Shown one piece after another: positions 48,470-50,696 of a DNA stretch of 64,000 nucleotides. This DNA is from Escherichia phage P1. Within the stretch, counting starts at the first letter, position 1; every line of letters begins with the position of its first letter. Below the pieces are notes generated by a model. The model worked only from the letters and a program-made list of their open reading frames with translations. It searched no databases and was not told where the DNA came from. Where the stretch lies: the sequence record AF234173.1, one strand, 5' to 3'. A program made the position numbers and the translations under genes.

Positions 48470-48691
48470 ATGGTTAATGCCAATCCTTGCACACGCCCAG
48501 AATTCATCTGGCGTTTCTATTCCTGTAAAAAACACCACTATCACTTCGTTATCGCAGCAACTGAAGACGAAGCACGCTCTCAATTGCCTGATGGCCCCTG
48601 CATTTTTACTGCCCGTTTTTCTACTAACTCGCGCAATTCACTTAGTTACTGGAACCTCCCCTTCTCTGCCGACGTTCAGGGGGGTTTATGA
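48470..48691 (+). CDS. icd: Icd, small protein translationally coupled to ant
   Basis: 73-aa ORF from ATG 48470 with GTGAGG upstream; stop TGA overlaps the ant ATG (ATGA). Confidence 0.6.
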   Translation: MVNANPCTRPEFIWRFYSCKKHHYHFVIAATEDEARSQLPDGPCIFTARFSTNSRNSLSYWNLPFSADVQGGL

Positions 48692-49731
48692 AAAAACCTC
48701 TCGTCACCCGTAATGAAATAGCCGAAGCGATCGCTTTGCATACTGCCTGTATGCCGACACGGGAGATCCCCGGCGCAATTGCTAACTATTTCATGATAAC
48801 CAGGCGTTTTTATACCCGAACAGATAAGGCTGTGATCAACAGGCTACTGATAGCCGAGATCAGGGATTATTTGATTGAACAAGGACGTCTACGTTACGCA
48901 ACAGTGGCAGCAGAAATAAGAAAGGAGGCACATAGAATGACCGGTAATAATTTGAATGTTGAAAAAACAGCACCTGTTACGTCAGCTACGCCAGCACCAG
49001 CCGTGAATATCATCCCCAACACCGGAGACACAATCGACAGCCAAACATTGTTGAAGATGGTCAATGAGGCACGCAAGTTATGTGGAGAACCAGAGGTTAG
49101 AAACAATAAATTCATCGAAAAAATACTCGATGAACTTGAAGGTGAATTTTACACAAAAAGTGCAAAATCCCATGGCACAAGGGCTGGGCGCTCTTTTGAG
49201 GTCATCACCATGACCTACAAACAAGCCCTGCGAGTCGCCGCGCGCGAGTCAAAAGCGGTCCGCCGTTCGCTGATCGACAAACTGGAAGAATTGCAGCAGG
49301 CAAACTCCCCTGCCCCATCGATCCCCCAAACATTACCAGAAGCTCTACGCCTGGCTGCCGAGTTGGCAGAACAGAAAATGCAGCTGGAACAACAGCTGGT
49401 GGCCGCAGCCCCTAAAGTAGATTTTGCCGACCGGGTATCAGTGGCTAATGGAATCCTGATCGGGAACTTTGCAAAGGTCGTTGGACTTAAGCAAAACGCC
49501 CTTTTCTCATGGTTGCGCCAGAACGGCATTCTCATGGCTTTTGGTGCGCGCAAAAACGTACCGCGCCAACAGTACATCAACGCCGGGTATTTCACGGTGA
49601 AAGAAGTGGTGCTGGATGATGAAAATGGCTACCAGATACGGCTGACGCCCCAATTAACGGGTAAAGGCCAGCAGTGGTTAACTCGCAAGCTACTTGATGC
49701 TGGTTTGTTAAAACCAGTAGCAATAGGTTAA
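48688..49731 (+). CDS. ant1: Antirepressor Ant (ant1; ant2 would start in frame internally), KilAC-type C-terminal domain
   Basis: 347-aa ORF; C-terminal domain (PQTLPEALRLAAELAEQKMQLEQ...KVDFADRV...GKGQQWL) shared with KilA. Confidence 0.8.
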   Translation: MKKPLVTRNEIAEAIALHTACMPTREIPGAIANYFMITRRFYTRTDKAVINRLLIAEIRDYLIEQGRLRYATVAAEIRKEAHRMTGNNLNVEKTAPVTSATPAPAVNIIPNTGDTIDSQTLLKMVNEARKLCGEPEVRNNKFIEKILDELEGEFYTKSAKSHGTRAGRSFEVITMTYKQALRVAARESKAVRRSLIDKLEELQQANSPAPSIPQTLPEALRLAAELAEQKMQLEQQLVAAAPKVDFADRVSVANGILIGNFAKVVGLKQNALFSWLRQNGILMAFGARKNVPRQQYINAGYFTVKEVVLDDENGYQIRLTPQLTGKGQQWLTRKLLDAGLLKPVAIG

Positions 49732-49744
49732 CAAAAGAAAAAAA

Positions 49745-49768
49745 CCTGCCAGCAAACTGGCAGGTTTC
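49745..49768 (+). terminator. Intrinsic terminator after ant
   Basis: CCTGCCAG-caaa-CTGGCAGG followed by TTTCT. Confidence 0.65.
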
Positions 49769-49809
49769 TGAGCAGATCGTCCAACCCGATCTGGATCGGG
49801 TCAGAAAAA

Positions 49810-49826
49810 TTTGCTCTAATAAATTT
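49810..49826 (+). promoter_or_regulatory. C1 operator-like site TTTGCTCTAATAAATTT (Op53) at the kilA-repL promoter
   Basis: 16 of 17 match to the C1 operator consensus. Confidence 0.6.
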
Positions 49827-49895
49827 CGTTTTCTAAGTGCAAAGAATCACCATTTCGAGCTGGTGATTGAAGGTTGATGCAAATTTGGAGAAAAA

Positions 49896-50696
49896 ATGCA
49901 ACAAACATTCAATGCGGATATGAATATATCAAACCTTCATCAAAATGTCGATCCTTCAACCACTCTGCCCGTTATTTGTGGTGTTGAAATTACGACCGAC
50001 CGCGCTGGCCGTTACAACCTTAATGCTCTACACAGAGCGAGCGGACTCGGTGCCCATAAAGCGCCAGCTCAATGGCTAAGAACGCTGTCAGCTAAACAGC
50101 TCATCGAAGAGCTTGAAAAAGAAACTATGCAGAATTGCATAGTTTCGTTCGAAGGCCGTGGCGGCGGCACTTTTGCCCATGAATTGCTCGCTGTGGAGTA
50201 CGCAGGCTGGATTTCTCCCGCGTTTCGGCTGAAGGTAAACCAGACATTTATCGACTATCGAACCGGAAGATTACAACCTGCTATTCCGCAGAGTCTCCCT
50301 GAAGCTCTCCGTTTGGCTGCCGACCTGGCAGAGCAAAAGCAACGGCTGGAGCAAAAAATGCTTATGGATGCACCTAAAGTCGAATTCGCTGAACGCGTTG
50401 CTACCGCCAGCGGGGTTCTAATCGGCAACTATGCCAAAGTGCTCGGCCTGGGCCAAAACTATCTCTTCACCTGGTTGCGTGATAACGGAATTCTGATCGC
50501 AACCGGTGAACGCAGGAACGTCCCCAAACAAGAATACATATCTCGTGGGTATTTCACCCTTAAAGAAACCGTGATCGATACAAGCAATGGAAGCAGGATT
50601 TCTTTCACGACTCGTATAACCGGCAAAGGTCAGCAGTGGCTGATGAAGCGATTGCTTGATGCTGGTGTGCTGGTACCTGTCGCGGCAACGCGCTAA
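49896..50696 (+). CDS. kilA: KilA (KilA-N plus KilAC domains)
   Basis: 266-aa ORF; C-terminal domain paralogous to Ant. Confidence 0.85.
   Translation: MQQTFNADMNISNLHQNVDPSTTLPVICGVEITTDRAGRYNLNALHRASGLGAHKAPAQWLRTLSAKQLIEELEKETMQNCIVSFEGRGGGTFAHELLAVEYAGWISPAFRLKVNQTFIDYRTGRLQPAIPQSLPEALRLAADLAEQKQRLEQKMLMDAPKVEFAERVATASGVLIGNYAKVLGLGQNYLFTWLRDNGILIATGERRNVPKQEYISRGYFTLKETVIDTSNGSRISFTTRITGKGQQWLMKRLLDAGVLVPVAATR

Follow-up and report, generated by a model that had tools for sequence, protein, structure and literature searches.

Sequence data on, and studies of, the ant1/ant2 and kilA genes of bacteriophage P1 date back to 1989. According to the annotation of the P1 record, and to published biochemistry (Riedel et al., 1993, as cited in later work), the C1 repressor is inactivated when the Ant1/Ant2 complex binds to it, and immunity is lifted. 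The KilAC (PF03374) and KilA-N (PF04383) domains were defined and named after these proteins by Iyer, Koonin and Aravind (2002), as cited in later papers, and KilAC, which takes its definition from the C terminus of P1 KilA, has been described as highly mobile and fused to varied N-terminal DNA-binding domains (bioRxiv 10.1101/2024.01.05.574328). Expression of kilA is lethal to E. coli, the gene is dispensable and of reportedly unknown function, and its control by P53/Op53 has been described (PMC9948254). By CRISPRi, ant1, ant2 and kilA are all non-essential (PMC10695390).

KilAC is also found in other protein contexts. Roi of the lambdoid phages HK97 and HK022 and the ‘KilA protein’ of Edwardsiella phage Edno5 combine it with a Rha-like N-domain that matches Phage_pRha weakly, at or below the cutoff, and in lambdoid genomes these genes are located in the nin/Q region, with neither an immunity operon nor a replicon beside them. 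Prophage proteins of Serratia, Salmonella, Brenneria, Klebsiella and Aeromonas (P0279, P0282, P0302, P0298, P0286 and others) carry KilA-N followed by KilAC, as P1 KilA does. In Listeria AriS, Staphylococcus phi11 Gp07 and Acinetobacter CreP the domain is fused to AntA/AntB or Bro-N, or stands alone, and host-directed activities have been mapped to it; these hosts differ from that of P1, and the phi11-type KilAC is approximately 40% identical.

We analysed a 64-kb window of P1 DNA (64,000 nucleotides of record AF234173.1), which corresponds to bases 1–64000 of the phage at 100% identity and in the numbering of its record. A 347-aa and a 266-aa open reading frame in it match ant1 and kilA, respectively, at 100% identity and have the same coordinates in AF234172 and NC_005856. 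The locus is identical to the described phage P1/P7 immI Ant1/Ant2 and KilA system and is indeed its type example, and the operators, promoters, C4, icd, ant1, ant2, kilA, P53as and repL are all annotated in the P1 record. All the features of a P1-type immI region are present, namely C4 RNA with its a/b targets, the icd/ant overlap and two in-frame Ant products (Table 1). It is very likely that the region 48688–50696 is where two classical P1 modules meet, the immI operon c4-icd-ant1/ant2 and the lytic replicon kilA-repL, and that the mobile KilAC domain alone is common to Ant and KilA, through old domain shuffling.

Table 1. Features of the immI and kilA-repL region, in window coordinates.
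Feature	Position	Strand	Remarks
C1 operator Oc4 (Op51)	48140..48156	+	5' of the c4-icd-ant operon; AATGCTCTAATAAATTT, 16/17 consensus positions; annotated in AF234172
Promoter P1c4 (P51b) of the immI operon	48195..48223	+	TTGACC-17-TATAGT, 10/12 consensus positions; annotated
C4 a1/b1 target mimic	48217-48269		annotated
C4 antisense RNA gene	48337..48422	+	Rfam RF01695, 68.8 bits (gathering score 45); RF03163, 51 bits; annotated
C4 a2/b2 targets	48423-48459		annotated
icd, cell-division inhibitor	48470..48691	+	ORF and annotation; stop codon overlaps ant1 start (ATGA)
ant1, antirepressor Ant1, 347 aa	48688..49731	+	module A, linker, module B, KilAC
Ant1 module A, aa 1-88	48688..48951	+	predicted four-helix N-terminal module, specific to Ant1
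ant2, in-frame internal start Met84	48937..49731	+	annotated; Ant2 is Ant1 minus module A
Ant module B, aa 115-206	49030..49305	+	N-terminal domain of Ant2; PHROG 1726
KilAC of Ant1/Ant2, aa 209-345	49312..49722	+	Pfam PF03374, E=1.2e-30
Hairpin, 13-bp stem	49740..49769		between ant and kilA
Promoter PkilA (P53) with overlapping C1 operator OrepL (Op53, 49810-49826) and Dam sites	49792..49826	+	annotated
kilA, 266 aa	49896..50696	+	KilA-N, long helix, KilAC
Promoter PaskilA (P53as)	49923..49951	-	RNA antisense to kilA 5' end, start 49915; TCGACA-17-TATATT, extended TG, 10/12 consensus; annotated
KilA-N domain of KilA, aa 27-123	49974..50264	+	
KilAC of KilA, aa 127-263	50274..50684	+	Pfam PF03374, E=2e-32
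repL with internal oriL, lytic replicon	50726..51571	+	co-transcribed with kilA; annotation, PMC9948254

Whole-protein BLASTP aligned Ant1 with KilA at 52% identity across 205 aa (E=4e-68), and in the shared core (Ant1 210–345, KilA 128–263) the identity is 65.4% at the amino-acid and 62.5% at the nucleotide level. Both proteins match the Pfam PF03374 ANT/KilAC model, for which the gathering score is 25.3 bits, Ant1 at aa 234–336 with 106.5 bits and KilA at aa 152–254 with 112.2 bits, and tblastn detected exactly two KilAC copies in the window. The predicted secondary-structure topology of the domain is the same in Ant1 and KilA, and in structure models KilAC is predicted to have a long helix leading into a small core that resembles a winged helix (AF2 pLDDT 84–95 for residues 175–255 of KilA). 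Sequence searches with KilA or the Ant-family profile returned no relatives of solved structure at E values up to 1. Pairwise alignment and domain annotation thus bear out the shared C-terminal domain noted in the preliminary description, which spans approximately 137 residues that are 65% identical, with every one of the motifs quoted there (LPEALRLAA.LAEQK, APKV.FA.RV, IGN.AKV and GKGQQWL) present in the Ant1/KilA alignment. An origin of this similarity in chance or low-complexity resemblance can be dismissed, given the significance of the alignment, the scores of more than 100 bits for each protein on the same Pfam model and the identical predicted topology.

The N-terminal regions differ, as had also been proposed. 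KilA matches PF04383 KilA-N above the gathering score of 23.8 bits and Ant1 does not; a Pfam search with Ant1 1–214 at E values up to 10 matched no family, KilA-N included, and NCBIfam holds no model for Ant1 or KilA. As a whole, Ant1 matches PHROG 63 ‘anti-repressor Ant’ (E=3e-103). Since the best 120 homologues of Ant1 1–214 were all near-identical P1-like Ants, diversity was taken from a representative search and from a search with KilA. The representative search divides Ant1 1–212 into modules at approximately 1–95 and 108–210. The first of these, module A, has AF2 pLDDT values of 72–92 across aa 1–80, matches on its own short proteins of 112–176 aa (some possibly fragments), and the Ant2 start at Met84 coincides with the end of this predicted helical module. 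Module B forms the N-terminus of many proteins of 220–260 aa, and KilAC is present in only 15 of the 59 module-B proteins.

The BLASTP alignment extends upstream of the core at 29% identity (Ant1 144–203, KilA 67–127), although profile comparison gives this stretch no support. An hhalign comparison of a module-B profile built from 59 sequences gave a probability of 0.2% against KilA 1–130, and of 0.4% and 3% against Roi-type and Bro-N-type N-domains, respectively, for which the target alignments were small. With 29% identity, no Pfam match and hhalign probabilities of 0.2–3%, homology reaching into the N-terminal halves was rejected at the sequence level. The AF2 model of module B shows a strand, two helices, a beta-hairpin and two further helices, a predicted topology that is winged-helix-like, and a fold search with it gave no significant match. 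Judged by this model, remote kinship with Bro-N/Phage_pRha/ORF6N-type domains may exist.

The two halves of P1 KilA have discordant nearest relatives. In its KilA-N half it shares 70–85% identity with prophage proteins (68–85% across the set named above), but with the KilAC halves of these proteins it shares only 31–45%; its own KilAC half is 65–73% identical to proteins with Ant-type or Rha-type N-domains. The KilACs of Roi and Edno5 are 66–68% identical to each of the P1 copies, a level no different from that between these two copies, and all share the linker motif IPQ(T/S)LPEALRLAA; those of the KilA-N-bearing prophage proteins are spread over several further subtypes, none of them within the Ant/Roi clade. 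In neighbour-joining trees of approximately 138 columns, with supports given as bipartition frequencies, a clade of Ant, Roi and P1 KilA was recovered in 100% of bootstraps and KilA joined the KilACs of its KilA-N relatives in 0%. By these comparisons, P1 KilA is a domain mosaic, with KilA-N from one prophage family and KilAC from the Ant/Roi-type clade, a result that supports the domain shuffling suggested in the preliminary description. The replacement could have run in either direction: P1 KilA gained a KilAC of the Ant/Roi type, or the exchange took place in its relatives. The N-terminal modules to which the mobile KilAC is attached are unrelated, namely KilA-N in KilA and modules A and B in Ant1.

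The genes had further been called tandem paralogues, which holds in so far as the domains are homologous, but not in the sense of a local duplication. A recent tandem duplication of an ant-like gene in P1, after which the downstream copy exchanged its N-terminus for KilA-N, would fit the adjacency of ant and kilA on the same strand, and KilA does group with the Ant clade, rather than with Roi, in 77% of bootstraps. However, third-codon identity is only 37% and the longest exact nucleotide match is 12 bases; P1 Ant1 and P1 KilA were direct sisters in 0% of bootstraps. Closer KilACs also occur elsewhere. Proteins with module B and KilAC (P0130, P0372) and the Salmonella Ants are 72–75% identical to Ant1, against 65% for KilA, and P0372 (73%) and the Salmonella Ants (70–71%) are closer to KilA than P1 Ant1 is. 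In a P1-like element of Salmonella (L008), moreover, kilA does not follow ant. Recent duplication is therefore very improbable. KilA may nonetheless have captured its KilAC long ago from a neighbouring ant ancestor. Relative to the published description of KilAC, the point added by the mosaic reading is that the KilAC of P1 KilA falls in the Ant/Roi subclade, unlike those of its KilA-N relatives.

The C1 operator is an asymmetric site of 17 bp with the consensus ATTGCTCTAATAAATTT, and matches with up to three mismatches occur five times in the window, against 0.34 expected. Op53 (TTTGCTCTAATAAATTT), like Op51, agrees with the consensus at 16 of 17 positions, so that, together with the record annotation, the two operator-like sites of the preliminary description can be taken as real C1 operators. 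Op51 lies approximately 550 bp upstream of ant1 and, in the record annotation, abuts the -35 element of P2c4, while Op53 overlaps the -10 element of P53. The immI unit is transcribed from a C1-repressible promoter behind Op51 and from P51b; the kilA-repL unit is driven by P53.

The third element of the c4-icd-ant operon is ant, and its main control is by the C4 antisense RNA. The Rfam C4 and c4-a1b1 matches both exceed their gathering scores; in the record, C4 is annotated as an RNA that binds icd and ant mRNA, and its target sites as repressing translation of icd and ant. The position of the ant1 start codon on the icd stop codon suggests translational coupling of icd and ant1, as far as can be read from the overlap, and the ant2 ATG has a Shine-Dalgarno sequence of its own, AAGGAGG, 8 nt upstream. 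The two genes thus belong, as claimed, to separate transcription units that each have a C1 operator, but to speak of separate control is an overstatement as both are in the same C1 regulon. Since C1 represses both promoters and Ant inhibits C1, the ant and kilA units are coupled in series: Ant would act first, C1 would be lost, and KilA and RepL would then be made.

A terminator had been proposed to separate ant from kilA, and there is indeed a strong hairpin between them, with predicted folding energies of -22.4 kcal/mol (z -4.0) on the minus strand and -18.9 kcal/mol (z -3.5) on the plus strand. Its proper U-tract, however, is on the strand opposite to ant and kilA. The minus-strand tail reads U7CUUUUGUU and the plus-strand tail UUUCUGAG, and a terminator scan called the minus strand only, with no call on the plus strand. 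To judge from its stem and tails, the hairpin has the canonical form of an intrinsic terminator only when read on the minus strand; the P1 record carries no terminator annotation at this position. It lies approximately 180 nt downstream of the annotated P53as start, and this distance and the minus-strand U-tract best fit the end of the P53as RNA, of which the hairpin is probably the terminator. The length of that RNA was reportedly given by Heinrich and colleagues in 1995 as about 180 nt. The P53as antisense RNA would oppose the kilA-repL unit, most likely ending at the hairpin.

What the Ant-lineage KilAC does in KilA can be approached from the activities of its homologues, by analogy with which KilAC would supply a common effector or interaction activity and the N-terminal modules the target specificity. 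One reading, which we consider doubtful, is that KilA has this KilAC as KilA and Ant both hit the same target. This could be C1 or the Ant1/Ant2 complex, giving a feedback lock, or the host, through a block of division or the SOS response, with Ant being dual-function like AriS and the lethality of KilA residing in its KilAC half.

On a narrower proposal, KilA would counteract C1 as Ant does, or work as a partner to Ant1/Ant2, with its KilAC binding C1 or joining the Ant complex. As kilA is itself repressed by C1, antirepression by KilA would lock in lytic commitment through positive feedback. The place of its KilAC in the Ant/Roi clade is consistent with this proposal, as is its RefSeq product name, ‘anti-repressor’, although kilA is described in the literature as having an unknown function (PMC9948254) and the regulation of phage genes by AriS maps to its N-terminal domain, not to KilAC (PMC9043618). 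The Roi proteins of lambdoid phages carry an equally close KilAC (66–67%). These phages, to our knowledge, use no P1-type C1 repressor, which argues that this KilAC subtype is not specific for C1. We consider such a role for KilA unlikely.

Somewhat better placed, but still doubtful, is the proposal that in both proteins KilAC is a toxic module aimed at the host, inhibiting cell division or the SOS response, in which case the lethality of KilA would lie in its KilAC half and modules A and B of Ant would act on C1. By analogy, this is suggested by the KilA-C domain of phi11 Gp07, which is sufficient for filamentation in E. coli, by stand-alone CreP, which gives filamentation and a weak FtsZ co-immunoprecipitation signal (bioRxiv 10.1101/2024.01.05.574328), and by AriS, in which inhibition of the SOS response belongs to KilAC and regulation of phage genes to the N-domain (PMC9043618); the lethality of expressed KilA (PMC9948254) points the same way. 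Those homologues, however, share no more than approximately 40% identity (phi11-type staphylococcal KilAC), and in immI the inhibition of cell division is annotated to icd, not to ant.

The sharing of KilAC between Ant and KilA is real, but it is ordinary and already published and annotated. Little is at stake in the rest of the locus, since its operators, promoters and antisense RNAs are in the GenBank record and its domains were named in 2002. The new part is modest, namely that P1 KilA appears, from the relationships of its two halves, to be a mosaic with a KilAC of the Ant/Roi lineage, and that the two P1 copies did not arise by recent duplication. This mosaic origin sharpens the question of what KilA does.

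The segment from 47900 to 51700 was 100% identical by megablast to Escherichia phage P1 (AF234172 / NC_005856) at the same coordinates, so that the window corresponds to bases 1-64000 of P1. Both open reading frames, ant1 and kilA, were found, and the interval singled out in the preliminary description runs exactly from the start of ant1 to the stop of kilA. The P1 ant/kilA locus is the type example, and the earlier finding is correct and already known: KilAC was reportedly defined in 2002 (Iyer et al.) on the C-terminus of P1 KilA, Pfam family PF03374 is named after both Ant and KilA, and the GenBank record already holds every regulatory element that had been picked out. 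What this analysis adds is confined to how the intergenic terminator is oriented, how Ant1/Ant2 are built from modules, and the mosaic ancestry of KilA.

Features of the ant/kilA locus and of the KilA protein.
Feature	Position	Remarks
C1 operator Oc4/Op51	48140-48156	Record annotation
Promoters P2c4 and P1c4		Listed after Oc4/Op51; record annotation
C4 antisense RNA (listed with its target sites)	48343-48419	Record annotation
icd	48470-48691	Record annotation
ant1	48688-49731	Record annotation
ant2	48937-49731	In frame with ant1; record annotation
Promoter PkilA/P53	49792-49820	Record annotation
C1 operator OrepL/Op53	49810-49826	With PkilA/P53 and three Dam sites; record annotation
kilA	49896-50696	Record annotation
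Antisense promoter PaskilA/P53as	49923-49951	Minus strand, start 49915; record annotation
repL with oriL	50726-51571	Record annotation
KilA-N domain	KilA aa 27-123
Long predicted helix	KilA aa 134-171
Compact core	KilA aa 175-255	pLDDT 84-95

The proposal that Ant and KilA share a C-terminal domain was borne out far beyond chance. BLASTP aligned 205 aa of Ant1 and KilA at 52% identity (E=4e-68), and both proteins matched PF03374 (ANT, 'Phage antirepressor protein KilAC domain') with more than 100 bits each. The true common core is Ant1 210-345 / KilA 128-263, with identities of 65.4% (protein) and 62.5% (DNA); the stretch of the alignment upstream of it reaches only 29%. KilA-N (PF04383) was matched by KilA alone. 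Within the 64 kb, tblastn found exactly two copies of KilAC and no second copy of any N-terminal module. The predicted KilA core is made up of two short helices, a beta-hairpin and a C-terminal helix, a topology repeated in the C-terminal part of the Ant1 AlphaFold model.

Ant1 1-212 was searched exhaustively against 1.8 billion cluster representatives, and the matches divided this region into two modules, A and B. Module A (approximately aa 1-95) matches by itself to short proteins (112-176 aa), which may in some cases be fragments, and module B (approximately aa 108-210) lies at the extreme N-terminus of many proteins of 220-260 aa. Since only 15 of 59 module-B proteins contain KilAC, module B is, judged from these sequences, a mobile N-terminal domain in its own right. 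In the AlphaFold model module A forms four helices (pLDDT 72-92 over aa 1-80), the linker (aa 86-113) is disordered, and module B comprises a strand, two helices, a beta-hairpin and two further helices. Ant2 starts at Met84, preceded by an AAGGAGG Shine-Dalgarno sequence, exactly where module A ends; it thus has the widespread two-domain B+KilAC architecture, to which Ant1 adds module A. Module B had no Pfam match at E values up to 10 and no profile similarity to KilA-N, Roi-type Rha-like or Bro-N-type N-domains (hhalign probability 0.2-3%), and Ant and KilA therefore do have different N-termini, as had been stated.

Among 109 full-length P1-like Ant proteins, nearly all variation falls in aa ~135-172 of module B (~49090-49203) and in the linker (aa 91-110, ~48958-49017), with an entropy of 0.5-0.96 bits in the variable patch compared with <0.1 over most of the remaining protein. 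The patch occurs as a few discrete alleles with recombining left and right halves, and the KilAC part is near-invariant. Such a pattern resembles the outcome of cassette exchange, or of diversifying selection, acting on the helix and beta-hairpin 'wing' predicted for module B. In the KilA-N half of KilA (49896-50264), aa 63-118 match PDC-S22, a candidate defence family in PADLOC (E=7e-10); KilA-N domains are also reported from defence proteins of prophages, for example BstA.

KilAC is widespread, with 947 to 1286 phage records matching the two P1 domains. Outside P1-like phages the nearest are those of lambdoid Roi proteins (HK97, HK022), 66-67% identical to both P1 copies, and that of Edwardsiella phage Edno5, 67-68% identical; the N-domain of these proteins is weakly Rha-like. 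Homologues found with KilA were then compared by BLASTP for each domain. The KilA-N half is 70-85% identical to Brenneria, Serratia, Salmonella, Klebsiella and Aeromonas prophage proteins, but those proteins share only 31-45% with P1 KilA across the KilAC half. The KilAC of P1 KilA reaches 65-73% solely with proteins that have other N-termini, namely a B+KilAC homologue (P0372, 73%), Salmonella P1-like Ants (70-71%), Rha-type proteins (67-70%) and P1 Ant1 (65%). At the level of identity between homologues, this shows P1 KilA to be a clear mosaic of two domain lineages.

In a neighbour-joining bootstrap analysis of KilAC (138 columns, 26 sequences), Ant, Roi and P1 KilA formed a clade with 100% support; the Ant clade received 85%, the Roi clade 100%, KilA as sister of the Ant clade 77%, and a grouping of KilA with the KilACs carried by its KilA-N relatives 0%. 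The genes next after icd-ant in a Salmonella P1-like element are toxin-antitoxin-like, and kilA-repL does not occupy that position. A recent local duplication of KilAC was rejected, since P1 Ant1 and P1 KilA were direct sisters in 0% of replicates, and the two copies have a third-codon identity of 37% and a longest common nucleotide word of 12 bases. Domain comparisons, bootstraps, codon divergence and Salmonella gene order leave the suggested domain shuffling well supported as the probable source of the shared KilAC, and our best guess is that KilA would have acquired its KilAC long ago, by capture from a gene of the Ant lineage. Positions 4001-6086 of the Salmonella element (GCA_014094055.1, 85.8 kb) hold an icd-like gene, a 334-aa Ant and Gp49/HI1420-type (HigBA-like) and PrlF-like genes, and the site after ant appears to be one where the cargo varies.

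The operator-like sites at 48140 and 49810 each match 16 of 17 positions of the P1 C1-operator consensus ATTGCTCTAATAAATTT and are annotated as such; allowing up to 3 mismatches, the whole window contains five matches against 0.34 expected. The description of the two units as separately controlled needs qualifying. Each has a C1 operator, but C1 is the repressor common to both and Ant is annotated in the record as a C1 inhibitor, so that the units act in series. On the ant side, Op51 is ~550 bp upstream of ant1, with the C4 RNA gene (confirmed by Rfam, RF01695, 68.8 bits) and icd in between, and the stop codon of icd and the ATG of ant1 overlap (ATGA). Rfam also confirmed the a1/b1 target mimic of C4 (RF03163). 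A further Rfam hit, to the Salmonella Hfq-binding sRNA isrK at 48230-48311 (plus strand), is sub-threshold (35.1 bits, gathering score 50, E=4e-5); it overlaps the leader region with c4 a1/b1 and probably reflects kinship of c4-type antisense systems in different prophages.

Between ant and kilA, where a terminator had been placed, there is indeed a strong hairpin (49740-49769), but the terminator scan calls it on the minus strand only; its tail reads UUUCUGAG on the plus strand and U7CUUUUGUU on the minus strand. The record annotation has no terminator feature at this position. Counted from the start annotated for P53as, the hairpin lies ~180 nt downstream, and the antisense RNA controlling the P1 lytic replicon, reportedly described by Heinrich et al. 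in 1995, is said to be ~180 nt long. The best reading is that the hairpin is the predicted terminator of this P53as antisense RNA; it may act in the plus direction too.

Upstream, immI is adjoined by the superimmunity genes simC, simB and simA (46786-48070, minus strand). The bin at their position, 46001-48000, has a GC content of 38% compared with ~46-50% in flanking 2-kb bins, which suggests a separately acquired module. Beside the lytic replicon, rlfA (51740-52444) and rlfB (52444-52908) lie behind C1 operator Op55 (51575-51591). RlfA is a DUF3800 protein, and the record says of both products no more than 'possibly associated with lytic replication'; together they match, very strongly, both components of PDC-M04, which PADLOC lists as a candidate anti-phage defence system (PDC-M04A, E=1e-95; PDC-M04B, E=1e-51), and may be a C1-controlled candidate defence pair.

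Expression of P1 kilA is lethal, and the gene is dispensable for lytic replication, its function being reported as unknown (PMC9948254); by CRISPRi, ant1, ant2 and kilA are all non-essential (PMC10695390). In Listeria AriS, KilAC inhibits the host SOS response and the N-terminal domain regulates phage genes (PMC9043618). KilAC causes filamentation in phi11 Gp07, as does the stand-alone KilAC protein CreP, for which a weak FtsZ co-immunoprecipitation signal was obtained (bioRxiv 10.1101/2024.01.05.574328). By analogy, KilAC would most likely be a shared effector or interaction module in P1 as well, with the N-terminal domains supplying specificity.
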